The translations under genes were made by a program, and so were the position numbers. The notes beneath the pieces are model-generated. The model was not told where the DNA came from. It worked only from the letters and a program-made list of their open reading frames with translations, and made no database searches. From an uncultured beta proteobacterium (GTDB lineage: Bacteria; Pseudomonadota; Gammaproteobacteria; Burkholderiales; Casimicrobiaceae), in assembly GCA_963805355.1 (NCBI GenBank), contig CAWDTZ010000004.1, positions 203,757 to 267,756 on the forward strand: a stretch of DNA of 64,000 bases, written 5' to 3'. Below, one piece after another: positions 20,922 through 55,586 of the stretch (within the stretch, counting starts at the first letter, position 1; each line of letters starts with the position of its first letter).

Positions 20922-21887
20922 ATGCGCAGGATGCCGGGCTACCGAATTGTCGAACGACTGGTCCGCGATGCGGTCGCCGAACGCGACGCGCTCGCTGCGG
21001 GGCTGCAGGCGGTTGTGGCCACGATTCCGCCGCGCTATTTCTACGATGCTTTGGGTTGCGCGCTGTTCGGCGCGATCTGCGAGCTGCCGGAGTATTACCC
21101 CACCCGCACCGAGCGGGCGATCTTCAGTGACTATCGCGACGAAATCGCCAATGCGGTGGGGCGCGGGCACCAGTTGGTCGACCTAGGGGCCGGAGACTGC
21201 GGCAAGGCGCTCGCGTGGCTGCCCTTTCTTGCGCCGTCGCGCTACATCGCCGTCGACATCGCCGGCGCCGAGATCGGCCGTTCGCTGGCGAAGATGGCGG
21301 TTGAATTCACGGAGATCGACATGCTGGGCGTGGTCGCCGACTTCACCAGCGGCCTCGATCTCGAGCAGGACCTCGATCCCGCCCCCGTCACGTTTTTCTA
21401 TCCGGGCTCGTCGATCGGGAATTTCACGCCAACGGGGGCGTCAGCGTTCCTGCAGCAGATCAAGCTGCATTGCGCCGGGCGCGACGACAGTGGGCTTCTG
21501 ATCGGCGTGGACACCAAGAAGGACAGGGCGCGACTCGACGCCGCCTACGACGACTCGGTGGGCGTCACGGCAGCATTCAACCGCAACGTGCTGAATCACG
21601 TCAACCGTGTGCTGGGCAGCAACTTCCGGCCGGAGTCGTTTGCGCATCGTGGCTTCTACAACGAAGCGGCTGGCCGAGTCGAGATGTATCTCGAGGCGAT
21701 CGGCAGTCAATGCGTGCGCTGGCCGGGGGTGGAGCGCAATTTCGCCGCGGGCGAGCGCATCCACACCGAGAATTCGTACAAATACTCACCCCTCGAGTTC
21801 ACGGCGTTGCTGCGCGGCGCCGGCTTCGAGCGCGTGCAATGCTGGCAGGATTCGCGGCGCGACTTCGCGGTGTATCACGCCACGTGA
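20922..21887 (+). CDS. EgtD-like SAM-dependent histidine N-alpha-methyltransferase family protein
   Basis: IPPRYFYDALGCALFGAICELPEYYPTRTE, LVDLGAGDCGK and ERIHTENSYKYSPLEF are hallmark EgtD-family motifs. Confidence 0.8.
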   Translation: MRRMPGYRIVERLVRDAVAERDALAAGLQAVVATIPPRYFYDALGCALFGAICELPEYYPTRTERAIFSDYRDEIANAVGRGHQLVDLGAGDCGKALAWLPFLAPSRYIAVDIAGAEIGRSLAKMAVEFTEIDMLGVVADFTSGLDLEQDLDPAPVTFFYPGSSIGNFTPTGASAFLQQIKLHCAGRDDSGLLIGVDTKKDRARLDAAYDDSVGVTAAFNRNVLNHVNRVLGSNFRPESFAHRGFYNEAAGRVEMYLEAIGSQCVRWPGVERNFAAGERIHTENSYKYSPLEFTALLRGAGFERVQCWQDSRRDFAVYHAT

Positions 21888-21896
21888 GGCGGGCAC

Positions 21897-22745
21897 CTAC
21901 CGGTCGGCGCCGCCGGTGCCCGCGGTTTCCATGCGTTCATGCCCCACCACCTTGCGCAACGCAATGCGGTCGAGCACCTTGACGACGCGGCCGTGGACCT
22001 GAATCAGGCCTTCCTCGTGAAAGCGCGAAAAGAGGCGGCTGACCGTTTCCAGTTTCAACCCCAGGTGGCTGCCGATCTCCTCCCGCGTCATGCGCAGGAC
22101 GAATTCGACGGACGAGTAGCCCCGCTCGTGGTAGCGCTGCGCCAGGTCGAGCAGGAAGGTGGCAAGCCGCTGATCCGCCTGCATCGTGCCCAGCATGAGC
22201 ATCGAATGGCGTTCCCGCGCAATGTCCTTCGACAGCAGGCGCGTCAGGCTGTGCTGAACGTGGGCGTTTTGCCGGGCAAGCGTCTCGATGCGGTCGAAGG
22301 GGATGGCACAGACTTCCATGTCCTCGAGGGCGACCGCTTCGCAGTCATGGCTGTCCGCCGCAATGCCGTCCGTACCGAGCACATCGCCCGCCATGTGATA
22401 GCCGGCGACCTGGCAGTGGCCGTCTTCACCCGGCAACACCGTCTTGCATGAGCCCGAGCGAATGGCGTAGAGCGCCGAGAATTTCTCCCCGGCCCGAAAG
22501 AGGACGTCGCCCTTGCGCATCCGGATGCGTCGCGCCACCAGAGGGTCCAGCAGCCGCATCTCGGCCGCGTCGAGCCCATTGGGCATGCATTGATTCCTTG
22601 CACTGCACAGCGAACAGGGCGATGACGTGCGTGGAAATTCCCGCAGGTTCGATTGCGGAGCCGGATTGGCCCCATGCCCGGATCGATGCTGGTCTTGAAC
22701 GGCAGTGGTTGCAGGCATGGCAGGCCCTTTTTCGTGTCGGTCCAT
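21897..22745 (-). CDS. fnr: FNR-type (CRP/FNR family) oxygen-responsive transcription factor
   Basis: N-terminal C-X2-C-X5-C (PCSLCSARNQC) plus VCAIPF (equivalent to the fourth Cys ligand in VCEIPF of E. coli FNR). Also a cNMP-like beta-roll and a recognition helix (LETVSRLF) that keeps the E--SR motif which reads TTGAT. Confidence 0.85.
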   Translation of the reverse strand: MDRHEKGPAMPATTAVQDQHRSGHGANPAPQSNLREFPRTSSPCSLCSARNQCMPNGLDAAEMRLLDPLVARRIRMRKGDVLFRAGEKFSALYAIRSGSCKTVLPGEDGHCQVAGYHMAGDVLGTDGIAADSHDCEAVALEDMEVCAIPFDRIETLARQNAHVQHSLTRLLSKDIARERHSMLMLGTMQADQRLATFLLDLAQRYHERGYSSVEFVLRMTREEIGSHLGLKLETVSRLFSRFHEEGLIQVHGRVVKVLDRIALRKVVGHERMETAGTGGADR

Positions 22746-22754
22746 ACGGTCACA

Positions 22755-23141
22755 TCAGTGCGGCAGCGGATCGAGATTGGCAACAACGTCGCGCACTTTG
22801 CCGAACTCGAGACTCTTGTCGAAAAATCGACTCGCGCCCGCTTCGAGGCAGACACGACGATACTGTAGGATCGGGTGGTTTGTCAGCACCAGATACATCG
22901 TGGTAGGCGACAGTGGCTGTAAACCGCGCAAGACATCGACGGCTGTTCCGCCGACGAGTTGGTAGTCGAGCACGACGCAATCCGGACTGGTGCGCCGGAT
23001 GCCGGCAATAGCCTCGTCGGGGGACTCCGCGCAGCCGACGACGGCGACGCCCGGAAGTTCGTGCAGCATCTCTACCAGGTGATCCCGGATCGGTGGCGAG
23101 TCCTCGACGATGAAAACCTTGGTGCGGATGGCGATGCTCAT
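22755..23141 (-). CDS. single-domain CheY-like response regulator receiver
   Basis: KVFIVEDSPPIRD...VVLDYQL...LVLTNHP, a receiver domain only. Its stop is 9 nt before the fnr ATG. Confidence 0.85.
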   Translation of the reverse strand: MSIAIRTKVFIVEDSPPIRDHLVEMLHELPGVAVVGCAESPDEAIAGIRRTSPDCVVLDYQLVGGTAVDVLRGLQPLSPTTMYLVLTNHPILQYRRVCLEAGASRFFDKSLEFGKVRDVVANLDPLPH

Positions 23142-23174
23142 GGAGTCCAAGTATCCGCACCACAGGCGCAACCG

Positions 23175-23196
23175 TCGATCAGGCGGGCCTGATCGA
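23175..23196. promoter_or_regulatory. perfect 9-bp inverted repeat TCGATCAGG-cggg-CCTGATCGA
   Basis: Lies between the NarL-type regulator stop (23275) and the receiver gene start (23141). No U-tract on either strand, so it could be an operator or a terminator. Confidence 0.3.
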
Positions 23197-23220
23197 TGGC
23201 CTAAGGCAACGCTGATTCTG

Positions 23221-23251
23221 GGGTAGGGATGCGCCAGGTTGCGGGTAGGGA
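23221..23251. repeat. direct repeat GGGTAGGGA x2, 22 bp apart
   Basis: GGGTAGGGA occurs at 23221 and 23243. A related inverted copy (GGGTAAGGC on the minus strand) lies around 23253-23261. Confidence 0.4.
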
Positions 23252-23274
23252 ACGCCTTACCCCCGGGGCTTCCG

Positions 23275-23925
23275 TCACGCGGGCGTGCTGGAGTCGTCGA
23301 CGAGCCGGTGCTTCAGTGCGTAGTGGATAAGCTCGGCGCCATTGCCGACATGCAGCTTTTCCATCAGCCGCGCCTTGTGGGTGCTGACGGTTTTGCCGGA
23401 CAGGTTCAACTGCGTTGCGATATCAGTGACCGACCTGCCCGACACCAGCAGGTTGAACACCTGGTACTCCCGGTCGGAGAGCGTGGTGTGCGGCGGCCCA
23501 TCGCTGTGCGGCATCGCGTCGAGTGCCAGTTGCTCGGCCACTTCGGCGCTGATGAAAGCGCCGCCTCCAGCCACCTTGCGAATCGCGGCCACGAGCTGTG
23601 TGGCGGCACTCTCCTTCGTCAGGTAGCCCGAGGCGCCCGCCTTGATCGCGCGCACTGCATATTGGTGTTCCTGGTGCATGCTGAGCACCAGCACCCGGAG
23701 GCGCGGCTTTTCCCCCTTCACCAGCTTGATGAGGTCGACGCCGCTGCGCCCCGGCATCGACATGTCGAGCAGCAGCACCGCGACGTCGAGTGAGCGCACC
23801 TGCTGCAATACCTCCGTTCCGTCGCGCGCCTCGCCCACGACCTCGAGATCGCCGGCCGCGAGCAGCAGTTGCTTCAGCCCCTCGCGCATGATGGTGTGGT
23901 CGTCGGCAATCAGGACGCGGATCAT
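23275..23925 (-). CDS. FixJ/NarL-family response regulator (receiver + LuxR-type HTH)
   Basis: IRVLIADDHTIMREG..LLLDMSMPG..., then LSDREYQVFNLLVSGRSVTDIATQLNLSGKTVSTHKARLMEKL. The ATG overlaps the kinase stop (ATGA). Confidence 0.9.
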   Translation of the reverse strand: MIRVLIADDHTIMREGLKQLLLAAGDLEVVGEARDGTEVLQQVRSLDVAVLLLDMSMPGRSGVDLIKLVKGEKPRLRVLVLSMHQEHQYAVRAIKAGASGYLTKESAATQLVAAIRKVAGGGAFISAEVAEQLALDAMPHSDGPPHTTLSDREYQVFNLLVSGRSVTDIATQLNLSGKTVSTHKARLMEKLHVGNGAELIHYALKHRLVDDSSTPA

Positions 23926-25595
23926 GCTTTCTCCGCGTCGTTGGCGATGGGCAGCAGCACTTCGACCACGGTGCCCTTTCCCGGCTCGCTGGTGATGGTG
24001 GCGTCGCCACCGAGAAGGTACGCGCGCTCGCGCAGGCCGATCAGCCCGAACGATCCCGCCTTGCGCGGGTCGTTCCGGTCGAACCCTCTGCCGTTGTCAT
24101 GGATACTCACGGTGATCCCGGCCGCGTCCAGATTGATCGCCACCTCGACCTGCTTCGCTTCGGCGTGCTTGGCGATGTTGGTGAGCGCCTCCTGCACCAC
24201 GCGAAACACCGCGGTCGAGTGCGCCGTCGGCACGTGCATCTCGGGGTTGCTGATTGCCAGCTCACAATGAACATTCGTCCGTTGCATGAAATTTTCCACC
24301 AGCCATTCTACGGCGGGAATGAGTCCGAGATCGTCCAGCAGCAGCGGCCGGAGGTCGGCGGCGATCCGCCGCGTGGCCGCGACCGTGGCGCCAAGCAACG
24401 CGGCCATCCGGTCCAGCCGCTCGGCAAGCGATGCTTCGGCCGCGGGCATTTTTTCCCGACACCAGGCGACGTCCATCTGAATCATGGTCAGTGCCTGCCC
24501 CAGTTCGTCGTGCAATTCGCGCGCGATACGATTCTTCTCCTGCTCGCCCGCGAGATCGGCCGCGGCCGACAGCTGCTGCAAATCCTCCTTCGACTGGCGC
24601 AATGCCGCCTCAGCCTGCGCCCGCGCGGTGACGTCACGCAGGATGGCGGTGAAGAACTTCGTACCGCCTTCGGTGAGTTGGGAAATCGAGGCTTCGATCG
24701 GAAATTCAAGGCCGTTGTCATGCCGCCTGCCCGTGACCGTGCGCGAGCCGCCCATCCGCCGCGACACCGTCCCGTCTTCGCCGAAGCGACGCACGTGATC
24801 CGGATGATGTACGCGCGCGTCGGCAGGCATCAACGCCGTCAGTGGCATGCCGACCGCCTGGCCGCGTGGGCAGCCGAACATCGCCTCCGCCGCGACGTTG
24901 AACAGCACGATGTTCTGGTCGGCACCGGCGATGATGATCGAATCCATCGCGGAGTCCAGTATCCCCTGCAGGCGCGCTTCGCTGCGCACCAGCATGGACT
25001 CGGTTTGCACACGTTCGGACACGTCGCGGAGGATCACCGTGAAGTATTTCCGGCGGTCTTCCATGTGCTGCGAAATCGAGGCTTCGATGGGAAATTCGGT
25101 GCCGTCGGCGCGGACTGCCCCCAGCACGGTTTGATGACCGAAGTGGCGCGACGTCGTTCCGGTACTGCCGAAATTGCGGATATGTGCATGATGTGCCGCG
25201 CGAAACTGCGCCGGAATCAGCCGGTCCAGCGGCTGACCCATGACGTCTTCGCGCCGCCATCGAAACGCATTTTCCGCCGCGGCGTTGAACAGGACGATGC
25301 ACTGGTTTTCATCCACGGTGATGATCGCGTCCATCGTTGTTTCGACGATGTCGCGGACACGCGTTTCCAGCCCCACGATGGCCCGCGTCGCGGATTGCTG
25401 CTGCCGCATCTGCGCGAATATCACGAACGCTGCGACCATCGCGGCGATCGTGCCCAGGACGCCTGCGCCGGCCACCAGTCCCAGGCGCAAGCCATCGTGC
25501 CACCACGCCGCCAGACCGAGTGCCACTGTTGCCGCGATCAGGGCGATGACCAGCACGAACAGGGCGTGCTGAAGGCCGGTAATCGGAGTCGACAT
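23922..25595 (-). CDS. sensor histidine kinase: 2 TM + two FixL-like PAS domains + HisKA_3/HATPase
   Basis: Starts at ATG 25595 (MSTPITG...). H-box ELHDELGQ and ATPase motifs (DNGRGF, GLIGLRERA). Both PAS domains carry R..H...[IV]R.FG....[ST]R....[RQ]TV.G.R.[DN]G.EFPIEASISQ. The upstream 286 codons of the track ORF overlap the next gene and are rejected. Confidence 0.85.
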   Translation of the reverse strand: MSTPITGLQHALFVLVIALIAATVALGLAAWWHDGLRLGLVAGAGVLGTIAAMVAAFVIFAQMRQQQSATRAIVGLETRVRDIVETTMDAIITVDENQCIVLFNAAAENAFRWRREDVMGQPLDRLIPAQFRAAHHAHIRNFGSTGTTSRHFGHQTVLGAVRADGTEFPIEASISQHMEDRRKYFTVILRDVSERVQTESMLVRSEARLQGILDSAMDSIIIAGADQNIVLFNVAAEAMFGCPRGQAVGMPLTALMPADARVHHPDHVRRFGEDGTVSRRMGGSRTVTGRRHDNGLEFPIEASISQLTEGGTKFFTAILRDVTARAQAEAALRQSKEDLQQLSAAADLAGEQEKNRIARELHDELGQALTMIQMDVAWCREKMPAAEASLAERLDRMAALLGATVAATRRIAADLRPLLLDDLGLIPAVEWLVENFMQRTNVHCELAISNPEMHVPTAHSTAVFRVVQEALTNIAKHAEAKQVEVAINLDAAGITVSIHDNGRGFDRNDPRKAGSFGLIGLRERAYLLGGDATITSEPGKGTVVEVLLPIANDAEKA

Positions 25596-25660: not shown

Positions 25661-27397
25661 CTATCGGGCGGGCGGCTTCCCGCCGGCGGACCCGGCCGGC
25701 GGCCCCTTGCCAAGGCGTTCGATGACGGGGCGCCAGGCCTGCGGCGATCGGCCGATGGCCAGCGACAACTCGGCGTCGTAGTGCACCGTGTAGGAGGCTT
25801 CGTCGGCAGCCAGTTCGTCGCGGGCGCACAACTGCTTTTCCAGCACGGCGACATCGGCATCCGACGCATCGGTTCCACGCCGGCTGCGCCCGACGATGCG
25901 GTGCCGCAGCGTGGCCTCGCTCGCGGAGAACGCGAGCAGCAAGAATGGCACGCCCAATTCGGTGGCGAGGTCCCGGAAAATGTCGCGCTGCCAGCGCTGC
26001 AGGAATGCACCGTCGACGATGGTCGCGAAGCCGGCGGCGGCAACGTTCGCCGCGAGCGCGCGCACGTGGTCGTAGGTTTGCCGGTTGGCGTCGTGGGAAT
26101 AGAGCCGTGCGGCGCAAGGGCCACCGGGCCGCCGCGTGGGTGGCACGCCCAATCGACGCTTGCGTTCGATGTCCGTGCGGATGCGCACGGCGCCGATGTG
26201 CTCCAGCAGGAACTGCGACAGCGCCGTCTTGCCGGAACCCGAAACGCCATGCGTGATCACGAGGGCGGGCGCGAAAGCGCGGGCGCAGGCTTGTGCAAGC
26301 CGCAGGTATCCATCGCGCTCGCGGAGCAGCGGCGCGGACTCGTCGGCGGAAGAAAGCTGGGCCATTCGCAGCTGCGCGATCTTGGCGCGGACCAGTGCCC
26401 GGTAGACGAGGTAGAAGCGCAGCACGGCCAGCCCGGCATAGTCGCCGGTGCATTCCAGGTAGGCATTGAGAAAGCGGTGCGCCAGTTCCGCGTGGCCGCG
26501 CTCGCGCAGATCCATGACGGTGAACGCGACCTCGCTGAGGACATCGATCCAGCGCATCTCATCGTTGAATTCGATGCCATCGAAGATCACGATTTCGCCG
26601 GCAAGGACCGCGATGTTGCCGAGATGCAGGTCGCCGTGGCATTCGCGTACAAAGCCGTGGGCAAGCCGCTCCCGGAATACCGGCAGGAGTGCGGCATATT
26701 CGCGCTGGGTCCACGACTCGAGCTGATCCAGGTCCTGCCGTCCCGACGTCGTGGCCATGGCGGGGCGCAACTGGTTGAAATTCGCAAGCGCGGCGTCCCG
26801 GATCGCTTCCGGCGTGCCACACGCGGGCGGAGGCACGCCGCCGGCAATGGCCACGTGGAAGTCGGCGACACGGCTGGCCAGCGCGTCGATGTCGCGCGGC
26901 GCAAGCTCCCCGCGCGCCAGCAGTTCGCTGGCCAGCGCATGTTGGGCAAACTCGCGCATCCTCACCGCATACTCCAGCACCGGCCCGGTGCCGCCGAGCA
27001 TGGGCATTGCGGGCGTGCCGGTGACCGCGACCACGTCGAGGTAGAGCGCCGGCGCCAGCCGACGGTTCAGCCGCAGTTCCTCTGCGCAAAAGTGACGCCG
27101 GGCCGCAAGCGTCGTGAAATCCAGAAAGCCCAGGTTGACCGCCTTCTTGATCTTGTAGGCGTGGGCGCCGGTCAGCAGCACGTAGGAGATATGCGTCTCC
27201 AGTACGGTTACGCTGGTGCAATCCGGGCCGTGCAATGCGGGGCGGGCTAGCGCCGCGACCAGGCGATCCTGCCCGCTCCCGGGGGCCACTCTCGTGCCTG
27301 GCGACAGGAATTCTTGCGGGGAAGCCGCGTCCGGGAGATCATTCGTCACGACATCGGGATCCGCGGTCAAAAGTTGCGCGACAATATGCTTCGACAA
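25661..27397 (-). CDS. bifunctional APH-like phosphotransferase / P-loop (AAA_33-like) protein
   Basis: Kinase catalytic motif (HGDLHLGNIAV) in the N-terminal half and a P-loop (HGVSGSGKTALS) in the C-terminal half. TTG start at 27397 is uncertain. Confidence 0.7.
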   Translation of the reverse strand: MSKHIVAQLLTADPDVVTNDLPDAASPQEFLSPGTRVAPGSGQDRLVAALARPALHGPDCTSVTVLETHISYVLLTGAHAYKIKKAVNLGFLDFTTLAARRHFCAEELRLNRRLAPALYLDVVAVTGTPAMPMLGGTGPVLEYAVRMREFAQHALASELLARGELAPRDIDALASRVADFHVAIAGGVPPPACGTPEAIRDAALANFNQLRPAMATTSGRQDLDQLESWTQREYAALLPVFRERLAHGFVRECHGDLHLGNIAVLAGEIVIFDGIEFNDEMRWIDVLSEVAFTVMDLRERGHAELAHRFLNAYLECTGDYAGLAVLRFYLVYRALVRAKIAQLRMAQLSSADESAPLLRERDGYLRLAQACARAFAPALVITHGVSGSGKTALSQFLLEHIGAVRIRTDIERKRRLGVPPTRRPGGPCAARLYSHDANRQTYDHVRALAANVAAAGFATIVDGAFLQRWQRDIFRDLATELGVPFLLLAFSASEATLRHRIVGRSRRGTDASDADVAVLEKQLCARDELAADEASYTVHYDAELSLAIGRSPQAWRPVIERLGKGPPAGSAGGKPPAR

Positions 27398-27430
27398 GTG
27401 CCCATGCTAGCGTGGACCGCGGGGAGGGGC

Positions 27431-27444
27431 TTGATCCGCGTCAA
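27431..27444. promoter_or_regulatory. FNR/FixK-type box TTGATccgcGTCAA
   Basis: 9/10 match to TTGAT-N4-ATCAA. Lies in the divergent region between the APH-like gene and the NapC/NirT gene. Confidence 0.5.
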
Positions 27445-27605
27445 TCTGCGCGTAGCCAGCGTCTGCCGGTGACGTCGCCACGGCGGTTTGACCTGTGTCA
27501 ATTGGCCCGGCGTGGCACTGCCGTATCGTGGCGCATCCAGCGCGCGCCAATCGCAAGAGCGGCATATTGCCGCCCTGGCGGCACCGCCTTATAGGAGCAA
27601 ACGCT

Positions 27606-28202
27606 TTGAAAACCGACGAACCTGGCAACCGCCGCCCCGGATTGTTTGCGCGCACATGGAAGCGTCTGTCCACGCCCAGCGCACGCTGGTCGGTGCTGGC
27701 CCTGGTCGTCCTTGGCCTGATCGTCGGTGCCGGCGCCACCATCGGCACGCAGGTGATGGTGGCGGCCACCGGCACCGATGAATTCTGCGGTGGCGCATGC
27801 CACTCGATGACGTGGGTGGCCGCCGAACACAAGGCCAGCGCCCATCACGTCAATCGAACCGGCGTGCAGGCCGGCTGCCACGACTGCCATATCCCGCACC
27901 AGTATCCGGCCATCCTGTTCTACAAGGCGAAAGCCGGGATCAAGGACGCGATCGGCGAGGCGCGCGGCGTCATTTCCACCGAGGAAAAATTCAAGAAGGA
28001 GCGGCTGCGCATGGCCAAGGTGGTCTGGGCGGAATTCAAGGAGACCAACTCCGAGAACTGCCGGACCTGCCACAAGATCACCCCGGAGATCGTCGCGAAG
28101 CAGAAGGATTTCGTGCAACCGATGCACCAGCAGTTCCTGGCGGGAACGGCAACCTGCATCGACTGCCACAAGGGCGTGGGCCACGAGGCCCCCGAGGAGT
28201 AG
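27606..28202 (+). CDS. NapC/NirT/CymA-family membrane tetrahaem cytochrome c (quinol dehydrogenase)
   Basis: N-terminal TM (WSVLALVVLGLIVGAGATIG) and four CXXCH motifs (CGGACH, CHDCH, CRTCH, CIDCH). TTG 27606 has AGGAG 7 nt upstream; GTG 27495 is an alternative start. Confidence 0.85.
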   Translation: MKTDEPGNRRPGLFARTWKRLSTPSARWSVLALVVLGLIVGAGATIGTQVMVAATGTDEFCGGACHSMTWVAAEHKASAHHVNRTGVQAGCHDCHIPHQYPAILFYKAKAGIKDAIGEARGVISTEEKFKKERLRMAKVVWAEFKETNSENCRTCHKITPEIVAKQKDFVQPMHQQFLAGTATCIDCHKGVGHEAPEE

Positions 28203-28209
28203 CGGACGG

Positions 28210-28755
28210 TCAGCGCCTGACCGGGTGCTTGGCGAGCTTGCGTTGCAGGGTGCGCCGGTGCATCGACAATGCACGGGCGGCCCCGGAAATGTTGTCGTTG
28301 TGGGCGCGCAGGACGCGCGTGAGCTGCTCCCACTCCATGCGCTTCAGCGACATCGGGCGGACGCTGGGGAGCGCTGCGGCATTGCCGGCCTCATGATGGA
28401 AGGCGGCGACGATCTCGTCGCCCGTGGCCGGCTTGCATAGGTAATACACCGCGCCGAGCTTGATGGCCTCGATGGCCGTCGCAATGCTGCCGTAGCCGGT
28501 GAGGACCACTATGCGCGCGTCCGGATGGCGCTTGCGCAGTGTGGCCACGAGTTTCAATCCCGATTCCCCCGCGATTTTCAACTCGACCAGCACCAAGTCC
28601 GGGGGATTCCGGTCGGCCTGCGCGAGCGCGGCACTGACCGTGCCGGCACAGCTGATGAGAAAGCGCCGGCTCGCCAAGGCCCGCGCGATGTCTGCGCAGT
28701 AGGCGGCGTCATCGTCGACCACCAGTACATTGCTTCGTCGCGGCTCTGTCATCAT
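28210..28755 (-). CDS. RegA/ActR/PrrA-family redox response regulator (receiver + Fis-type HTH)
   Basis: VLVVDDD...LVLVELKI..., with C-terminal NISGAARALSMHRRTLQRKLAK. 181 aa, as in RegA/ActR. No kinase gene is adjacent. Confidence 0.8.
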   Translation of the reverse strand: MMTEPRRSNVLVVDDDAAYCADIARALASRRFLISCAGTVSAALAQADRNPPDLVLVELKIAGESGLKLVATLRKRHPDARIVVLTGYGSIATAIEAIKLGAVYYLCKPATGDEIVAAFHHEAGNAAALPSVRPMSLKRMEWEQLTRVLRAHNDNISGAARALSMHRRTLQRKLAKHPVRR

Positions 28756-28839
28756 CGGACCCGGGAACCCGTCCCATTGTGCCTGCGGCCGATTGCCACA
28801 GGTTCGGGCGGATCATGCCGGATGGAGGCACGCGCGACA

Positions 28840-28853
28840 TTGATTTTGATCAA
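28840..28853. promoter_or_regulatory. perfect FNR/FixK box TTGATtttgATCAA
   Basis: 10/10 consensus. Its centre is about 91 nt upstream of the RegA-type gene start. Confidence 0.6.
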
Positions 28854-28876
28854 GCGCGCGGTGTGGACGCGGCAAC

Positions 28877-28907
28877 GGAAAAGGCCGGCATCGAGCCGGC
28901 CTTTTCC
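28877..28907. terminator. bidirectional rho-independent terminator
   Basis: GGAAAAGGCCGGC-atcga-GCCGGCCTTTTCC, a 13-bp perfect stem with an A/T-run on both sides. Lies 27 nt downstream of the cytochrome c stop. Confidence 0.8.
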
Positions 28908-28933
28908 ATTGTCCTGCGGGACGGACGCGTCGA

Positions 28934-29227
28934 CTACATCGCAAGAACCCACTTGACGAGCGACTTGACGTCGTCGGGGCTTGCCTTGACGGCCGGATGG
29001 CCCGTTGCTGCGGTGAGCTTGGCGACAAGCGTCGCTTCCGCGTCGGCCTTGCCCTTGTACTTGGCGGCGACGTCCTTGAACGACGGACCCATTTTCTTGG
29101 CATCCACCGCATGACAATTGAGACAGCCACTCTTCTTGGCGAGGGCCTCCTGGGCATTGGCCGTGCCCGCGGCCGCAAGGCCAAACGATACGGCAATGAT
29201 CATGCCGGTAAACAGGTTCAACTTCAT
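28934..29227 (-). CDS. periplasmic monohaem class I cytochrome c
   Basis: Starts at ATG 29227. Signal peptide MKLNLFTGMIIAVSFGLAAAGTANA, a single CLNCH, and MGPSFKDVAAKY. 97 aa. Confidence 0.85.
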   Translation of the reverse strand: MKLNLFTGMIIAVSFGLAAAGTANAQEALAKKSGCLNCHAVDAKKMGPSFKDVAAKYKGKADAEATLVAKLTAATGHPAVKASPDDVKSLVKWVLAM

Positions 29228-29449
29228 GATTGCTTCTCCCTTGCTCGAATAGGTGGGTCTTGAGTTTATGCCCGCACGCTGCACGCCATTCTATGTTAAC
29301 GCATGGTGCCCGGTTCCGGTTGTCATGACATCCGGCGCGCGGCGTGTCGGGATGCGACATATTGCCGCGTTTTCCGGCCGTGGCACGCGGTATGCGGGTC
29401 GCGCCGAACCTTGCGTCCGAAGGTGTCGGCAGGGATACTTTCTGCCAGC

Positions 29450-29950
29450 ATGCCTCGGGGAGCGCGCGTGGATGTGCGAAAGTCGGCGCTGGTCGAGCAT
29501 TCCGCCAGCGAGATGTTCGACCTGATCGAAGGCGCCGAGCATTACGGTGATTTCCTGCCATGGTGCACGGGTGCGACCATCATCGAGCGCGATGATACGG
29601 TGGTGATCGCGCGCATTGCGGTCAAGTACCGCGGTATCGCGTTCAGTTTCACGACGCGCAACCCCAAGCAGCGTCCGCACTGGATGGCCATCCACCTCGA
29701 GAACGGTCCGTTCAGCGCGTTCGAAGGCGAGTGGCGGCTGCGGGAGCTGGCGCCCGACGCCTGCAAGGTCGAATTCGCATTGCACTACGAGTTCGACCAT
29801 CGCCTGGTCGGCCGGTTTGCGGCGCCGGTATTCGACGGCATTGCGCGTACGATGATCGATGCATTCGTGCTGCGCGCGGATCGGGTTCTGCCGGTCCGCC
29901 CGCCACCGCTTGCGCGCGGCAATTTTCCCGACGATGGAGGTTCATCATGA
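29450..29950 (+). CDS. SRPBCC/RatA-like (CoQ-binding START-fold) protein
   Basis: VDVRKSALVEHSASEMFDLIEGAEHYGDFLPWC matches the RatA/Coq10-type N-terminus. GTG 29468 (GGGAG 5 nt upstream) is an equally plausible start. Confidence 0.7.
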   Translation: MPRGARVDVRKSALVEHSASEMFDLIEGAEHYGDFLPWCTGATIIERDDTVVIARIAVKYRGIAFSFTTRNPKQRPHWMAIHLENGPFSAFEGEWRLRELAPDACKVEFALHYEFDHRLVGRFAAPVFDGIARTMIDAFVLRADRVLPVRPPPLARGNFPDDGGSS

Positions 29951-30432
29951 CCGAGCAAGTTGATTTCGATGCTTTGCGCACCTCCCGACTTGGAGCCGAG
30001 CTGACCGACGCGCAGGCGCGCACGCTCGCGGGCATCGTCACCTTTCGCGATCTGCCAACCGGCACGGTGCTGGTTCCGGAAGGTGCGGCCGACGATCACC
30101 TTTACGTCATTGTCAGCGGCGTACTCGGCGTGGTGCGCAATGCGGGCAGGGAGGATGAAATCACGCTGGTTTCGCTGGGTACCGGCGACTTGGTCGGCGA
30201 GCTCGGCTTCATCGACGGATCGCCGCACTACGCGGCGCTGGTGGCCACCAGCCCCACCCGCGTGTTTGGACTCGAGCGCGCAAAGCTGGAGTCGTTACTG
30301 CAGGTCCATCCGGAAATCGTCTATCGCGTGATGCGGGCGATCATCCGCACTGTGCATCAGATCCAGCGTCGCCTTTCGATGCAGTCGGTGGAGCTTGCCA
30401 ACTATATCTACAAGCAGCACGGCAGGTATTAG
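29947..30432 (+). CDS. stand-alone cyclic-nucleotide-binding (CAP effector) domain protein
   Basis: The ATG overlaps the upstream stop (ATGA). GDLVGELGFIDGSPHYAALVA beta-roll/phosphate-binding-cassette-like region. No HTH. 161 aa. Confidence 0.8.
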   Translation: MTEQVDFDALRTSRLGAELTDAQARTLAGIVTFRDLPTGTVLVPEGAADDHLYVIVSGVLGVVRNAGREDEITLVSLGTGDLVGELGFIDGSPHYAALVATSPTRVFGLERAKLESLLQVHPEIVYRVMRAIIRTVHQIQRRLSMQSVELANYIYKQHGRY

Positions 30433-30538
30433 CACGGCAGTCCTCGATTGCTTATTGCGCCTTCGCCGCATTCGCGCGACATGCCGACGATGCATTGTTG
30501 CAACAGTTCCGCCCCTGCTGTAACAACTTTGCCTGCGC

Positions 30539-30552
30539 TTGATATAGATCAA
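30539..30552. promoter_or_regulatory. perfect FNR/FixK box TTGATatagATCAA upstream of the decahaem gene
   Basis: 10/10 consensus. A candidate -10 (AAGAAT, 30574-30579) places the box centre near -41.5 (class II geometry). Confidence 0.65.
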
Positions 30553-30678
30553 GGCAGCCAATCTGACGACGGCAAGAATGTCCCAACGATGTCGCCGGCC
30601 CTGGCGAAGCTGATGCCGTAACAAGCGGCGCAGGCAGGCGCCGGTCGCGGCCGGGATGGCTTAAACGGAGGCAGGGAC

Positions 30679-31623
30679 ATGCGCTTGGAACTCAATACGC
30701 TGACGCGCTGGCTGGCGGTTCTGGCGACCGCCCTGATCGTGCTTCCGGCCACAGCCCAGCAGCCGCCGGCGGCCAAGGACAATGTCTGCCTGACCTGCCA
30801 CGCGGATGCCATGAAGGGGATGGCCACATCGAAGCATGCCGTCACCGGGGATGCGCGCACGCCGTTCGGCAGCGGGCAGGGATGCCAGGCCTGCCACGTC
30901 AACGCCGAAGAGCATCTCAAGGATCCGACGAAGTCGAAGCCGATGACCTTCGCCAAGTCGCTGCCGGGGCATGATCGCAGCGAGCCGTGCCTGACCTGCC
31001 ACAAGGGCGGCACCAAGATTCACTGGGCGGGCAGCGCGCATGACCGTAACGACATCGCCTGCAACGACTGCCACAAGGCGCATGCAGCGAAGGATCAGGT
31101 GCTGGTTGCCGCGACGCAGGCCGGCGTCTGCTTCGACTGCCACAAGAACGTGCGCGCCGCCACGCTGAGTGCATCCACCCATCCGCTCAAGACGGGATGG
31201 ATGCCGTGTTCGTCCTGTCATCAGCCGCACGGCTCGGTCGGCCCCGCCAATCTCATCAAGAACACGGTCAACGACACCTGCTATACGTGCCATGCGGAAA
31301 AGCGCGGCCCGTTCCTGTGGGAACACCCGCCGGCGCGTGAAGACTGCGCCAACTGCCATGCCCCGCACGGCTCGAACAACGCGCCGATGCTGGTGGCCCG
31401 CGGTCCCTTCCTGTGCCAGCAGTGTCACCAGAATCCGTTCCATCCGAGCACGGTCTACAGCGGCAACAATCTGCCGCCGTATTCGATACCCAATCAGGAT
31501 CCGAACAAGTCGCCGATAGCGGGTGCGCCTTCCGGCGACAAGATGCTGGGCCAGAACTGCGCGAATTGCCACACGAAGGTCCACGGCAGCAACCACCCGT
31601 CCGGCGCGCGCTTTACGCGCTGA
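30679..31623 (+). CDS. mtoA: periplasmic decahaem c-type cytochrome, MtrA/DmsE/MtoA/PioA family
   Basis: Signal peptide and ten CXXCH motifs in 314 aa (CLTCH, CQACH, CLTCH, CNDCH, CFDCH, CSSCH, CYTCH, CANCH, CQQCH, CANCH). GGAGG RBS. Confidence 0.9.
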   Translation: MRLELNTLTRWLAVLATALIVLPATAQQPPAAKDNVCLTCHADAMKGMATSKHAVTGDARTPFGSGQGCQACHVNAEEHLKDPTKSKPMTFAKSLPGHDRSEPCLTCHKGGTKIHWAGSAHDRNDIACNDCHKAHAAKDQVLVAATQAGVCFDCHKNVRAATLSASTHPLKTGWMPCSSCHQPHGSVGPANLIKNTVNDTCYTCHAEKRGPFLWEHPPAREDCANCHAPHGSNNAPMLVARGPFLCQQCHQNPFHPSTVYSGNNLPPYSIPNQDPNKSPIAGAPSGDKMLGQNCANCHTKVHGSNHPSGARFTR

Positions 31624-31660
31624 CCGAGCTACCTTGAACCGCTGGAAGAAAGGTCAAGAC

Positions 31661-34069
31661 ATGAATGCGGTGAAATGCAAGGGATCGTTCATGAGGAAGC
31701 CGCTGGCCACGGCCATCGCGCTACTGGTCGTGGCGCCGGGGATGGCGCTATCCGAGCCGCTGTTCCAGGTGCCGCTCTATGGCAACGCAGACATGACCCG
31801 GTACGAGACCAATAACGTCGAGCTCGGGATCGGCTACAACGACGTCAGTGGCGACGGCTACAAGTTCGGCGAGTTCTCGGGGCTGTACAAGAAGGATCCA
31901 TTCGCGATCGGCAACTTCAACTGGGCGCAGCGCGACCTTGCCACGGGTGGATTCGGCAACGCCTGGGGATGGAATCTCGGGCTGCCATCACGCCAGTTGG
32001 GCGGCGCCTTCGGTACCCAAGGCAAGTGGAAGGTCAACGCCGAGTTCGACCAGCTCACGCACTACGACACCAATTCGGCCAGCTTCATCCATCAGGGACT
32101 CGGCTCCAACAATCTCACGCTGCCCGCCGGCTTTGCGGGTATCACTGCCGGCAACTCGCAGCCGCCGTCCAACGTCACGGAGATCAACAAGTATCTCGAA
32201 GGCGGGTATGGCATCAAGGTCGACCGCGACTTCCTGAAAGTCGGCGGCGGCTACGCCTTTGGCGGCAAATGGGAATTGACCGGCAAATATGACTACCAGA
32301 AGCGCGACGGCACCAAGCTCACCGGTTCGGTGATCGGCAGTTCCGGCGGCAATCCGCGCGCGGCCCTCCTGCCGTCCCCGGTCAACGACAACACGCAGCA
32401 GATCGACATCGGGCTGGGATATACCTCCGATGTCGCGCAATTCAACATCAGCTACTGGTACTCGAAGTATTCCAACGACGAATCCACGTTCAATTGGCAG
32501 AATCCGTTCGCGAACCAGACGGGACTCTGGCAGGCGGGATCCGGGGTCGGATTCTCGACCGGTTACGGCAGCATGTCGCTGGCGCCGGACAACGACTTCC
32601 AGCAGGTCCAGGCAACGGGTGCCTACAATTTCACGCCCACCACGCGCCTGACCGGTACCTTTGCCTATGGCGTGGGACGCCAGAACCAGTCCTATGATCC
32701 ATACACCATCAACGTGGCGCCGCGGGTGTCGCCCGGTCTGTCGGTGCCGATCGGGTTGCCGCAGGGTTCGCTCGACGGCAAGATCGAGAACACGTTGTTC
32801 GACCTCACGCTGACCTCACGGCCCATCGCCCGGCTGAACCTTCGGCTCAATTATCACTACAACGACCACAACAACAAGACACCGGAGAATCAATATCTCT
32901 ACGTCGGCGGCGACTCGGCCAACCAGCCGGCCGTGCCGCCCGGGCAGGTGGCCAACCAGGTCGCCTCCGGTGCGATCCGCACGAACCTGCCTCCTGGAAC
33001 GACCGAAAACAAGTTCACGATCGACGCGGACTATCCCATCGCGCGCGGAACCACCGTGCGGGCCTGGTACAACTATCTCAAGACCGACTACAGCGTCGGC
33101 GCCGACGAACTGCGCTACGACACCAACGTCAACACGCTCGGGCTCGAATTGCGGTCCCGCGCCAACGAACTTGTTTCAGGCTTCGTCAAGTACCAGTACG
33201 ACCAACGCCGAGGTTCCGACTTCGACCAGAATCGTCCCTACGACGCCAGCTACACGCCGGCACAGGTGGCGGGCACGCCCTTCGACAACCTGCCCACATT
33301 GCGCCAGTACTACGTCGCGAATTACGACCAGGACGGGATCAAGGCCAACGTTTCCCTCACTCCAAGCGGCCCCGTGACGTTCTCGCTGCAGGCCAACTGG
33401 TACGAGCGCAAGTACAACGGGCCCGATTGCGGCGGCCCCAACGACCAGCTGGTGCTGCCCGCGGTCTTTCCGTCGCAATGCCAGGGCCTCCAGAACCAGA
33501 CGGGCCAGTCGTATACCTTCGATGCGCAATACGTGCCGATGGAGGCCGTCAATCTGTACGCGTTCTACACGTGGTCGCAACTCGAGCAGAACCAGGACGG
33601 GCGGCAATACAGCGGCGGAGGTTCGCTGGTGTCGCAGTCGACCGACGCCAACCGCAACTGGTCGGTCAACACCCAGAGCGCCGACAACGCGGTGGGTATC
33701 GGCGGCAAATACGCGCCGGCGGACAAGCCCTATGACGTCGGTTTCCAGTACCTCTACAGTCAGGGCGTGACCAGCACCAGTCCGTTTGCGGCGGCGGGGC
33801 TGACCAACGCTTCCACCGGGGCATTGGGCGCCAGCGCCGTTCCCGACGTGAAGAACACGCTGAATTCGTTCCAGCTCTTCGGCAAGTACAAGTACAGCAA
33901 GAACCTGCTGTTCCGCGCCAACTACTGGTACCAGCAACTGAGCGCCGATAACTGGGCGTACGACGGCGCGACGCCTACGTCGAGCAATAACGTTCTGCTC
34001 ACCGGGCAGTCGACGCCGAACTACACTGCCAACGTGTTCGGCATCTCGCTCGCGTACACGAACTGGTAG
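31661..34069 (+). CDS. mtoB: MtrB/PioB/MtoB-family outer-membrane beta-barrel (porin partner of the decahaem cytochrome)
   Basis: About 800 aa with a signal peptide and alternating Gly/aromatic/Asn-rich beta-strand composition. The C-terminal residue is aromatic (..LAYTNW). Lies directly downstream of the decahaem gene, and its size matches PioB/MtoB rather than the shorter MtrB. Confidence 0.8.
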   Translation: MNAVKCKGSFMRKPLATAIALLVVAPGMALSEPLFQVPLYGNADMTRYETNNVELGIGYNDVSGDGYKFGEFSGLYKKDPFAIGNFNWAQRDLATGGFGNAWGWNLGLPSRQLGGAFGTQGKWKVNAEFDQLTHYDTNSASFIHQGLGSNNLTLPAGFAGITAGNSQPPSNVTEINKYLEGGYGIKVDRDFLKVGGGYAFGGKWELTGKYDYQKRDGTKLTGSVIGSSGGNPRAALLPSPVNDNTQQIDIGLGYTSDVAQFNISYWYSKYSNDESTFNWQNPFANQTGLWQAGSGVGFSTGYGSMSLAPDNDFQQVQATGAYNFTPTTRLTGTFAYGVGRQNQSYDPYTINVAPRVSPGLSVPIGLPQGSLDGKIENTLFDLTLTSRPIARLNLRLNYHYNDHNNKTPENQYLYVGGDSANQPAVPPGQVANQVASGAIRTNLPPGTTENKFTIDADYPIARGTTVRAWYNYLKTDYSVGADELRYDTNVNTLGLELRSRANELVSGFVKYQYDQRRGSDFDQNRPYDASYTPAQVAGTPFDNLPTLRQYYVANYDQDGIKANVSLTPSGPVTFSLQANWYERKYNGPDCGGPNDQLVLPAVFPSQCQGLQNQTGQSYTFDAQYVPMEAVNLYAFYTWSQLEQNQDGRQYSGGGSLVSQSTDANRNWSVNTQSADNAVGIGGKYAPADKPYDVGFQYLYSQGVTSTSPFAAAGLTNASTGALGASAVPDVKNTLNSFQLFGKYKYSKNLLFRANYWYQQLSADNWAYDGATPTSSNNVLLTGQSTPNYTANVFGISLAYTNW

Positions 34070-34100
34070 TCCTGCCGAGCCGCCCGCCGAGTTGAGAGGC

Positions 34101-36956
<2,856 letters not shown>

Positions 36957-37034
36957 CGTCTTCCCTCTGGCACGGCGTGACTACACCGCCCACGCCGCGC
37001 CACTGCAACCTACTACCGCGCATGCTCGTCCAGT

Positions 37035-37048
37035 TTGATGCAGGTCAC
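37035..37048. promoter_or_regulatory. weak FNR-like box TTGATgcagGTCAC
   Basis: 8/10 match, about 85 nt upstream of the 951-aa dehydrogenase start. Confidence 0.25.
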
Positions 37049-37119
37049 GTGCGCATGCGTTAGGGGCGGCCCCGCCGAATCCGGGCCACGGGCTCGACCC
37101 TTTGGAGTTTTGCGCTGCG

Positions 37120-37133
37120 TTGATCCATGTCAA
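37120..37133. promoter_or_regulatory. FNR/FixK-type box TTGATccatGTCAA upstream of nuoA
   Basis: 9/10 match, about 100 nt upstream of the nuoA ATG. A possible -10 (TACTGT) sits at 37156. Confidence 0.5.
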
Positions 37134-37232
37134 ACGGGCCGGAGGAGGAGGCGCCTACTGTACGCAAACACGGAAAGGCGCGCGAGACGCCGGTGACATG
37201 AACCGTGATAACAGGGATGGGCTGCACGCTGC

Positions 37233-37610
37233 ATGGATACCACGGTCAACCCTTACGTCGTTTTCCTGCTTTACATGGGGGCCATCCTGTCCTTTGTCGC
37301 CATCACGCTGGCGATGAACTACATGCTCGGCCCCAAGCCCGTCGGCTCCGCGCTGAAAATGGAACCTTTCGAGTGCGGCGCCACGCCCGTCGACATTCGC
37401 AACATCAAGGCGGTTCCGATCAAGTACTACGGCGTGGCGATTGCCTTCATGCTGTTCGACCTTGAAACCGTATTCCTGTTCATCTGGGCGCTGGGGGCGC
37501 AGCCCTTGACGAGCTTCATGCTGGCGACGTTCGGCATCTTCATCTTCCTGCTGGTGCTGATCCTGCTCTATGTCTACAAGGCCCGGCTGCTCGAGGCCGT
37601 CACGGAGTAG
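37233..37610 (+). CDS. nuoA: NADH:quinone oxidoreductase subunit A
   Basis: 3 TM and the EPFECG motif (KMEPFECGATP). Confidence 0.9.
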   Translation: MDTTVNPYVVFLLYMGAILSFVAITLAMNYMLGPKPVGSALKMEPFECGATPVDIRNIKAVPIKYYGVAIAFMLFDLETVFLFIWALGAQPLTSFMLATFGIFIFLLVLILLYVYKARLLEAVTE

Positions 37611-52888: not shown

Positions 52889-52945
52889 TTGGGCGTCCTC
52901 TCTAGTTGGGTCCGGTGCGCGGCGCCGCGGCGGCCGCCCGGTTGC

Positions 52946-54574: not shown

Positions 54575-54583
54575 GAGAGGCTC

Positions 54584-55570: not shown

Positions 55571-55586
55571 GATCGATCTCCGCGAT

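Follow-up and report, generated by a model that had tools for sequence, protein, structure and literature searches.

Clusters of the MtoAB type are used as metagenome markers for iron oxidation, and almost all knowledge of them comes from Sideroxydans lithotrophicus ES-1. In this organism, the Mto pathway is encoded by mtoD-mtoA-mtoB-imoA/cymA-pmcA (Slit_2494-2498), and the biology of MtoAB, MtoD and ImoA/CymA has been described (PMC4412085, PMC13390432, PMC12016527). The monohaem cytochrome MtoD is bis-His ligated (His47, His95) and has a potential of +155 mV (PMC4412085). Other systems of this kind are MtrCAB of Shewanella (6R2Q; PMC8805035), PioABC of Rhodopseudomonas palustris TIE-1, which is used for electron uptake, and DmsEFABGH of Shewanella, which serves extracellular dimethyl sulfoxide (DMSO) respiration. 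Here, a stretch of 64,000 nucleotides from an uncultured Casimicrobiaceae bacterium (contig CAWDTZ010000004.1 of assembly GCA_963805355.1) was analysed; this whole stretch is called the window, and all positions refer to it unless a related locus is named. It was found that an mtoA, an mtoB, an mtoD-like and a cymA-like gene all lie within 6.5 kb (27606-34069). We consider it likely that this region is an FNR-controlled MtoAB-type conduit with CymA/ImoA-like and MtoD-like partners. The four genes are as follows.

27606-28202, plus strand: NapC/NirT tetrahaem quinol/quinone oxidoreductase, CymA/ImoA-like, 198 residues, PF03264
28934-29227, minus strand: class I monohaem cytochrome c, short-loop MtoD-like, 97 residues, signal peptide, CLNCH motif
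30679-31623, plus strand: decahaem c-type cytochrome of the MtoA/MtrA family, 314 residues, ten CXXCH motifs
31661-34069, plus strand: porin of the MtoB/MtrB/PioB family, 802 residues, signal peptide, C-terminal Trp

The number of CXXCH motifs in the 314-residue protein is exactly ten. The protein has a Sec signal peptide and is predicted to be periplasmic and inserted into the barrel. It scored above the cutoff of the NCBIfam model TIGR03508 (268 bits against a cutoff of 192) and matched MtrA of PDB entry 6R2Q (chain A) over residues 30-311 with an E value of 1.7e-62. When 17 decahaem homologues were aligned, 20 His residues proved invariant, ten of them in CXXCH motifs and ten elsewhere. Because ten proximal and ten distal His candidates are invariant, ten bis-His haems are expected. 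Sequence identity of the protein is about 50% with Sideroxydans MtoA and 44% with Shewanella MtrA, and its family is large, with 7991 homologues at an E value of 1e-10 or better.

The porin gene begins after a gap of 37 bp. The N-terminus of its product reads ...VVAPGMALS/EP and its C-terminus ...AYTNW. The protein covered positions 3-633 of the 635 positions of the Pfam profile MtrB_PioB (PF11854; E 2e-113), scored 357 bits against a cutoff of 240 with TIGR03509 and matched MtrB of Shewanella baltica (6R2Q chain B) by sequence with an E value of 8e-17. An AlphaFold2 model was built from an alignment of 58 porin homologues. In this model (mean predicted local distance difference test score, pLDDT, 86.7; predicted template modelling score 0.83), the protein folds into a barrel with 26 strands of at least 8 residues. 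When the model was compared with the PDB by Foldseek, the top match was 6R2Q_B (E 1.4e-50, target-normalised template modelling (TM) score 0.92), and the runners-up were 22-strand TonB receptors with TM scores of about 0.4. Chains A and B of 6R2Q are the only PDB relatives of the pair; the PDB holds no MtoA, PioA or DmsE.

No MtrC/OmcA decahaem lipoprotein was found, and the 64-kb window contains no further open reading frame (ORF) with haem motifs beyond the cytochromes of the cluster. All intergenic gaps between 27398 and 34100 are at most 246 bp, which leaves no unassigned ORF space in the cluster; therefore, neither an MtrC gene nor a gene for a high-potential iron-sulfur protein (HiPIP) is hidden there. 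Thus, 30679-34069 encodes a porin-cytochrome pair of the MtrAB family that has no surface cytochrome of MtrC type beside it. The initial annotation, which was made from the letters of the sequence and its ORFs, had recognised an MtrAB/PioAB/MtoAB-type pair in a decahaem protein followed by a barrel of about 800 residues with an aromatic end, and had reported that MtrC and HiPIP were absent. Profile models, PDB matches and the structure model all bear out the pair, the strand count that it had proposed as a check gave an MtrB-like barrel, and the absence of both proteins was confirmed. The conduit core is a new example of a well-known porin-cytochrome family, and standard annotation models recognise it.

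Related loci were taken from the best 80 species, with one genome per species, and four exact look-ups were added, which gave 84 loci (designated below by L numbers). The decahaem genes of the 80 scanned loci, mostly from metagenome-assembled genomes (MAGs) of Burkholderiales, were 41-64% identical to that of the window; the scan took in Gallionellaceae, and Shewanella and Rhodopseudomonas were not among its species. Within 10 kb of the decahaem gene, an MtoB-like neighbour was present in 76 of the 84 loci, an MtoD-like neighbour in 39 and a CymA-like neighbour in 35. The commonest order was mtoD-mtoA-mtoB-cymA on one strand. The parts list mtoA-mtoB-mtoD-cymA, which had been likened to that of Sideroxydans, is present in the window with all four members, and by these counts it is a known combination of wide distribution.

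The CymA-like protein matched positions 2-173 of the 174 positions of PF03264 (Cytochrom_NNT) with an E value of 1.9e-51, carries an N-terminal transmembrane anchor and scored under the equivalog cutoffs for NapC, TorC and NrfH. Its identity to the cymA/imoA products of mto clusters, Sideroxydans included, was 34-43%. The tetrahaem NapC/NirT protein expected upstream of the conduit is thus present, but its first haem motif is CX3CH and not CXXCH: the four motifs are CGGACH (in CGGACHSM), CHDCH, CRTCH and CIDCH, that is, three CXXCH and one CX3CH. The CH-x-M arrangement after the first motif is present. The CX3CH codons lie at 27786-27803 and are kept in the orthologues of L085 and L091. Among 35 aligned CymA-like sequences, five had this motif (window, L005, L021, L052 and L069). 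A CX3CH first motif has been reported earlier for CymA homologues of the Fe(III) reducer Rhodoferax ferrireducens (PMC6295460).

For the monohaem cytochrome, which had been predicted as a 97-residue class I cytochrome c and proved to be one, the best PDB match was MtoD of S. lithotrophicus ES-1 (4XXL, E 2.3e-17); cytochromes c551/c552 matched more weakly, with E values of 5e-15 or worse. Met is absent at the ligand position of c551. The single candidate for the distal ligand is a conserved His in ...TGHPAVKAS..., and xHPxxKAS is kept in all MtoD-like orthologues aligned. Compared with MtoD, the distal loop lacks 12 residues, and the His aligns with His91 of MtoD, not with His95. Having no Met ligand but one conserved His, the protein is a probable candidate for His/His ligation.

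The window was searched for perfect FNR boxes. TTGAYN4RTCAA was matched six times, where 0.14 matches would be expected; the conduit cluster contains four of the six. The boxes, given without strand, are as follows.

27431-27444: TTGATCCGCGTCAA, in the intergenic region between cymA and a divergent gene for an APH/AAA fusion protein, on the APH/AAA side
27488-27501: TTGACCTGTGTCAA, 105 bp upstream of the start of the cymA/imoA-like gene
28840-28853: TTGATTTTGATCAA, 85 bp upstream of the start of a regA-like gene
30539-30552: TTGATATAGATCAA, 127 bp upstream of the start of mtoA
37120-37133: about 100 bp upstream of nuoA
57523-57536: upstream of an sdh/frd-like operon

Perfect boxes therefore stand at cymA, at the regA-like gene and at mtoAB, in agreement with the earlier statement that at least three transcription units have FNR-type boxes; the units themselves are delimited by strand, spacing and FNR boxes only. 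Box positions are conserved. The pair at 27431/27488 recurs in L091 (5277 and 5334) as the same two boxes, exactly 57 bp apart, and L085 has a box identical to that at 27488 upstream of cymA (at 7541). The position of the regA-like box is kept in L085 (8886), L091 (6854) and L092 (7243), and that of the nuoA box in three relatives (L085, 13609; L092, 13125; L093, 16009). The box upstream of mtoA has a homologue in L001 (TTGATGTAGATCAA, 159 bp upstream of mtoA), and the box of L008 is identical to that of the window. Read by eye, -10-like hexamers (TATCGT for the box at 27488 and AAGAAT for that at 30539) follow the box centres at a distance of about 30 bp, as in class II FNR promoters.

The enrichment extends beyond the window. 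Across 82 non-redundant loci, box density was 0.337 per kb upstream of the mto cluster versus 0.022 per kb elsewhere, which is about 15-fold; 27 boxes were counted in the upstream zones against 1.8 expected (Poisson P about 1e-22). At least one box was present in 24 of the 82 loci, including nearly all members of the decahaem clade to which the window belongs. A full-text literature search found no paper connecting MtoA with FNR.

An oxygen/redox sensing island (21897-25595) lies 2-5 kb upstream of the conduit region and contains the following genes.

21897-22745, minus strand: FNR-type regulator (Pfam cNMP_binding and HTH_Crp_2), about 5 kb upstream of the cluster
22755-23171, minus strand: single-domain CheY-like response regulator (Pfam Response_reg, E 1.4e-15)
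23275-23925, minus strand: NarL/FixJ-class response regulator (REC and GerE by Pfam; UvrY/NarL/FixJ class by NCBIfam)
23922-25595, minus strand: membrane sensor histidine kinase with two FixL-like PAS domains, HisKA_3 and HATPase (Pfam)

Near its N-terminus, the FNR-type protein carries the Cys cluster C-X2-C-X5-C; a fourth Cys and a recognition helix of the E--SR type are also present (CSLCSARNQC...DC...ETVSRLFSRF). Its score with the NCBIfam model Fnr PRK11161 was marginally under the cutoff (221 against 228 bits), and it is 96% identical in L085. The TTGAT-N4-ATCAA boxes are probably read by this protein. Since the boxes would be read by an FNR of the [4Fe-4S] type, the conduit system is expected to be on when oxygen is scarce. 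Complex I in this lineage looks to be under FNR control as well, judging from the box upstream of its nuo operon. The CheY-like gene is found at the same position in L085 and L091, and the start of the NarL/FixJ-class gene overlaps the stop of the kinase gene. Both PAS domains of the kinase matched the FixL haem-PAS structures 8JS5, 1D06 and 1DP6 (E 1e-17 to 3e-20), which makes the kinase a candidate sensor of O2 or redox state; 9 of the 84 loci have a homologous kinase gene about 2.4 kb upstream of mtoA. On its other side, fnr adjoins a gene for an EgtD-like histidine-specific methyltransferase (20922-21887, plus strand; Methyltransf_33, E 1e-95), which is also present in L085.

The conduit genes are interleaved with, and preceded by, further genes.

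25661-27397, minus strand: fusion of APH-type kinase and AAA_33 domains (Pfam), divergent from cymA
28210-28755, minus strand: regulator of RegA/ActR/PrrA architecture (REC and Fis-type helix-turn-helix), 181 residues, NF033791 match below cutoff
29468-29950, plus strand: RatA/Coq10-type START-fold protein (PF03364, E 3e-31)
29947-30432, plus strand: stand-alone cyclic-nucleotide-monophosphate-binding-domain (CNB) protein, 161 residues, PF00027

The RegA-like regulator scored 177 bits with NF033791, below the cutoff of 250. Its phospho-acceptor Asp is replaced by Glu58 (codon 28582-28584, minus strand) in the sequence VVELKIAGESG; VVELKI(A/G)GESG is common to L085, L091 and L092, and L005 has Ala at this position. 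A cognate kinase of the RegB type was not found in the window. Because a conserved Glu replaces the Asp, the protein is probably a phosphorylation-independent orphan regulator, the level of which would be set by its own FNR box. In L005, a Casimicrobiaceae MAG, a regulator 46% identical to that of the window heads the conduit cluster, which is arranged on one strand as FNR box-regA-mtoA-mtoB-mtoD-cymA.

The stop codon of ratA overlaps the start codon of the CNB gene (ATGA), and the pair is kept in L085, L087, L091 and L094. The name "RatA family toxin" was considered and rejected: the protein scored 105 bits against a cutoff of 258 with NF007999, and its gene is translationally coupled to the CNB gene; it was assigned to the Coq10-type START proteins. 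A role in quinone handling is speculation from work on Coq10/PasT. The CNB protein was modelled with AlphaFold2 (pLDDT 89) as a CNB barrel with a 37-residue C-terminal helix and without a DNA-binding domain, and Foldseek grouped the model with the N-domains of CRP/GlxR and with stand-alone CNB structures. In the phosphate-binding cassette, the window protein and all Casimicrobiaceae-like orthologues have His in place of Arg, whereas L009 and L011 keep the Arg; because of this replacement, cNMP binding is uncertain. The protein is more conserved than MtoA, with more than 120 clusters of at least 66% identity, all of about 161 residues. When seven independent contigs were examined from the CNB side, the gene adjoined an MtrB_PioB/decahaem pair in five. 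The APH/AAA fusion, for which there was no NCBIfam match, is kept between the kinase gene and cymA in L085 (75% identity) and L091 (64%).

All three interleaved genes that the initial annotation had named, RegA-type, RatA-like and cNMP-binding, are present, with the cluster split over both strands. It had called this organisation unusual. The split strands and the regulators in between stand, but the order cymA-regA-mtoD-ratA-CNB and its strand pattern are kept in L085 and L091, so that this is no oddity of one genome. L085 (GCA_038321425.1) is collinear with the window from a phosphonate-binding-protein gene through fnr, cheY, narL, the kinase gene and APH/AAA, and further through cymA, regA, mtoD, ratA, CNB and dld to nuoA, with identities of 75-96%. 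In L085, CNB and dld are separated by 96 bp, whereas in the window the distance is 3.67 kb and holds the FNR box, mtoA and mtoB. By this conservation, cymA-regA-mtoD-ratA-CNB appears as a vertically inherited chassis of the Casimicrobiaceae-like lineage.

The slot between CNB and dld is occupied differently elsewhere. In L091, L092, L094, L087/88 and L089, a decahaem/MtrB_PioB pair lies in the same slot in the opposite, convergent orientation. These resident pairs are 37-44% (A) and 21-24% (B) identical to the pair of the window, whereas the flanking chassis genes are 57-83% identical. They form a clade of their own (58-81% identical to each other and at most 49% to the decahaem genes of the other loci compared) and likewise have FNR boxes upstream. 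The resident porin of L092 is a 914-residue fusion of MtrB_PioB and OmpA. CNB homologues with 47-55% identity also precede the clade-E clusters of L004, L009 and L011. Because it is found both at resident pairs and at clade-E clusters, the association of CNB with MtrAB spans two divergent conduit clades. In the window, mtoB is abutted in convergent orientation by a gene for a lactate-dehydrogenase-like protein of Dld-II type (FAD/iron-sulfur/CCG; 34101-36956, minus strand, 951 residues). The conduit slot of L091, L093 and L094 is bordered by lutABC and by genes for a lactate permease and Dld.

The closest relatives of the window pair were found in L001-L003, with 89% (mtoA) and 87% (mtoB) identity. 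These loci belong to an organism closely related to that of the window, as indicated by RraA (92%), IlvD/Edd (93%), a 586-residue protein (85-88%) and an ABC permease (93%). There, the pair lies between ilvD and the gene for the 586-residue protein, which forms the right-hand flank; in the window, these two genes are adjacent (15644|15717), about 15 kb from the position of mtoAB. No chassis genes lie within 6 kb of the pair in L001. The two copies are homologous from about the FNR box onwards, and the similarity breaks off precisely at the mtoB stop codon, which indicates that the box at 30539 travels with mtoAB. Direct or inverted repeats and tRNA genes flanking the pair were searched for and not found, there was no plasmid match, and the GC content of the pair is only slightly lower than that of its surroundings. 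On this comparison, FNR box-mtoA-mtoB (about 30539-34069) behaves as a relocatable two-gene cassette, and the slot holds another MtrAB pair or none in other genomes. Directly upstream of the cassette, L001 (5462-6499) and L002 (594-1631) encode an EB_dh-domain (PF09459) lipoprotein with an LAAC lipobox and its own FNR box, a possible surface haem partner in these two loci; an EB_dh fragment with 60% identity (L029, 1-351) precedes a Usitatibacter cluster.

Taken together, the data suggest the following model. MtoA would be exported, loaded with ten bis-His haems and threaded into the 26-strand MtoB barrel, forming a haem wire across the outer membrane. The MtoD-like monohaem cytochrome, probably His/His ligated, would carry electrons in the periplasm, and the CymA/ImoA-like NapC/NirT tetrahaem protein would exchange them with the quinone pool at the inner membrane. 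At low oxygen, an active FNR of the [4Fe-4S] type may switch on the cymA, regA-like and mtoAB units, and probably also complex I and the fumarate-reductase-like operon. Additional control could come from the FixL-like kinase with its NarL-type and CheY-like regulators, from the Asp-to-Glu RegA-like protein and from the CNB protein. Family membership, the barrel fold, the set of haem ligands, the enrichment of boxes, the synteny and the mobility of the cassette are direct results of the analysis, whereas FNR binding, the interactions of the partners and the direction of flow are what we infer here from sequence.

Several results weigh against this model or against the likeness to ES-1 on which it draws. 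According to a 2026 study of ES-1, MtoA and ImoA interact not with MtoD but with PmcA, which is His/Met ligated and has a potential of -143 mV (PMC13390432); the cluster of the window has one monohaem gene only and no second, PmcA-like one. A scan of 27300-37300 with the sigma-70 consensus gave no promoters, and terminator-like matches were at chance level. A relaxed FNR search allowing two mismatches gave no site for the mtoD-like or the ratA-CNB unit. L085 keeps the chassis with no conduit at the slot, and hence the chassis is not strictly dependent on the mtoAB cassette there. In a neighbour-joining tree with bootstrap, the window protein stands apart from the Sideroxydans and Gallionella sequences. 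Finally, FNR control, the CX3CH motif of the CymA-like protein and the lactate dehydrogenase and complex I neighbours fit an outward role equally well.

This tree, proposed as a check in the initial annotation, included S. baltica MtrA (rebuilt from the 6R2Q alignment) as its sole reference and no sequences of ES-1, PioA or DmsE. The window sequence fell into a clade of 12 members (97% bootstrap) with those of L001, L004-L012 and L015, among which are Casimicrobiaceae MAGs. S. baltica MtrA grouped with L069, L070 and L082, which carry MtrC-like decahaem genes of 775-785 residues (Marinobacter and others). The window protein fell outside the MtoA clade of Gallionellaceae. The deep nodes are weak, with 52% for the split of the Mtr side. 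In published maximum-likelihood trees, the clades of Mto, Pio and Mtr proteins do not follow function (PMC8805035); for this reason, decahaem phylogeny cannot decide function.

The direction of electron flow was then weighed. We rate the chance of inward flow, in which Fe(II), minerals or a cathode outside the cell would be oxidized under microoxic conditions or during denitrification, as about even. The absence of MtrC, the carrier of MtoD type and the match of the parts with the uptake pathway of ES-1 point in this direction; ES-1 makes MtoA on solid magnetite (PMC12016527). Mtr and Mto conduits are reversible, however (PMC8805035, PMC7005843). The initial annotation had judged that the Fe(II)-oxidizer type fitted better. 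The parts list on which this judgement rested holds, but the direction of electron flow is not readable from sequence.

Outward flow has a lower probability but is a serious contender. In this case, the CymA-like protein would, under anoxia, oxidize quinol supplied for instance from lactate or NADH, and MtoAB would deliver the electrons to soluble or chelated Fe(III), Mn(IV), humics or an anode, in the way in which MtrAB works in some bacteria that lack MtrC. FNR boxes on both cymA and mtoAB are the classic pattern of an anaerobic respiratory chain, the CX3CH motif is shared with CymA homologues of R. ferrireducens (PMC6295460), a Dld-type lactate dehydrogenase gene (34101-36956) and an FNR-boxed nuo operon adjoin the conduit, and the resident conduits of relatives lie beside lutABC, lactate permease and Dld genes. 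In Shewanella, the place of MtrA can in part be taken by MtoA, and MtrAB alone serves iron reduction in Magnetospirillum (PMC7005843); the lack of function-specific clades among Mto and Mtr proteins (PMC8805035) is also in keeping with this direction. On the other hand, no surface cytochrome of MtrC/OmcA type is encoded in the 64 kb, the periplasmic carrier is of the MtoD kind, and MtoD at +155 mV in Sideroxydans would be a thermodynamic trap between quinol and MtoA (PMC4412085, PMC13390432), and the synteny with lactate genes may merely reflect common ancestry in one family. Roles other than inward or outward transfer to and from metals or electrodes, such as service to a DmsEF-like partner, are improbable.

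It was also considered whether the genes are neighbours by accident, the cassette having landed in a permissive site while cymA, mtoD, regA and CNB serve other periplasmic redox tasks. The chassis of L085 without a cassette at the slot, the cassette of L001 in another context with no chassis genes within reach and the FNR box that the cassette carries for itself are compatible with such an accident. However, another MtrAB-type pair sits in the same slot of five other relatives, CymA-like and MtoD-like genes accompany mtoAB in many taxa at the frequencies given above, CNB homologues accompany the clade-E clusters in L004, L009 and L011, and all units appear to be under one regulatory signal. 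An accidental arrangement is therefore judged quite unlikely. That MtoAB feeds a non-cytochrome surface partner encoded elsewhere, either a terminal reductase or a haem-b lipoprotein, with metals not the direct substrate, as in DmsEF, is just as doubtful, since what speaks for it is the FNR-boxed EB_dh lipoprotein before the cassette in L001/L002 with its fragment in L029 and the NCBIfam name "DmsE family", whereas no EB_dh homologue was found in the window (tblastn with the L001 protein, E 0.33; Pfam surveys), Pfam surveys of the 64-kb window, in which the nuo operon (38-51 kb) was sampled by one ORF, gave no molybdopterin DMSO reductase gene, and the name is a generic TIGR03508 label that covers MtrA, MtoA and PioA.

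An identity of the decahaem protein with DmsE was rejected, on gene context and not on phylogeny. The FNR-controlled MtoAB-type conduit remains the preferred reading of the region.

Other parts of the window were surveyed as well. The region 57477-63306 contains, behind the FNR box, an sdh/frd-like operon (cytochrome b, flavoprotein and iron-sulfur subunit) followed by a gene for a 669-residue CCG/4Fe-4S protein; the operon possibly encodes an anaerobic fumarate reductase. At 51221-56873 (minus strand) lie genes for malic enzyme, an NAD(P)H/iron-sulfur oxidoreductase resembling the small subunit of glutamate synthase, and 2-oxoacid:ferredoxin oxidoreductase alpha and beta, a gene content that points to a central metabolism of anaerobic type. 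Two well-supported ORFs had no Pfam match: 3572-4198 (plus strand, 208 residues) and 15717-17477 (minus strand), the latter being the 586-residue gene that flanks the cassette site of L001-L003; their GC content at third codon positions is 0.84-0.85. An Rfam scan of the whole window found nothing.

What is new in this locus is its context: an FNR wiring that recurs over many loci, a chassis with exchangeable cassettes, and two accessory regulators. Neither the CNB-only protein nor the Asp-to-Glu regulator of RegA type has been discussed earlier for porin-cytochrome conduits. The FNR boxes, the nearby fnr gene and the roughly 15-fold enrichment predict when MtoAB-type conduits are expressed. 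Near-identical genomes with, without or with a displaced conduit, or with another conduit in the slot, amount to a natural experiment, and their comparison could reveal which of the periplasmic and inner-membrane partners are true requirements of a conduit. We tentatively propose, as a reading that may well prove wrong, that conduits of Casimicrobiaceae-like Burkholderiales are exchangeable plug-ins in the fixed slot of an FNR-wired chassis (CymA/ImoA, short-loop MtoD, RegA-like regulator, Coq10/RatA START protein and CNB protein), that this slot has seen insertion, inversion, loss and displacement of different MtrAB-family cassettes, and that the CNB protein and the Asp-to-Glu regulator form an undescribed control layer dedicated to the conduit. 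If so, low-oxygen control by FNR would be a general rule for MtoAB-type clusters. The locus leaves the basic picture of porin-cytochrome electron transfer unchanged, and it does not settle what sets the direction of flow.

Among the known systems, DmsEFABGH shares with the window a decahaem protein that passes TIGR03508 and a porin in the DmsF family. In contrast to that system, the mtoAB operon of the window contains no dmsAB molybdoenzyme genes, and mtoB is followed by the convergent lactate-dehydrogenase-like gene. The Shewanella MtrCAB conduit resembles the window in its MtrA-type wire, its MtrB-type barrel and its inner-membrane partner of the CymA family. It differs in having MtrC/OmcA and in its periplasmic carriers, which are the tetrahaem STC/FccA and not a monohaem MtoD-like cytochrome. 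CRP is the regulator of Mtr in Shewanella, whereas the regulator in the window is apparently FNR. With PioABC of TIE-1, the window has in common an MtrAB-family pair without MtrC. However, PioA is extended at its N-terminus by about 270 residues (PMC10654088), whereas the window protein has 314 residues in total, and the window cluster lacks PioC (HiPIP) and has a NapC/NirT protein as inner-membrane partner.

The Mto pathway of ES-1 is matched by the decahaem MtoA, the 26-strand MtoB, the MtoD-related monohaem cytochrome, a 198-residue NapC/NirT protein of the same length as ImoA, and the lack of both MtrC and HiPIP. The differences concern sequence and organisation. The window MtoA is only about 50% identical and belongs to another well-supported clade; the CymA-like protein has CX3CH as its first motif; the loop of the MtoD-like protein contains one His (GHP) where MtoD has HEEEH, and it is shorter by 12 residues; and a second, PmcA-like monohaem gene is lacking. 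In the Sideroxydans sp. locus L058, imoA is not followed by a monohaem gene. Whereas the ES-1 genes run in one direction, those of the window are on both strands in at least four transcription units. The FNR boxes, the RegA-like regulator and the CNB protein belong to the window locus, and its host resembles a facultative heterotroph, in contrast to ES-1, which is a lithoautotroph of the Gallionellaceae.

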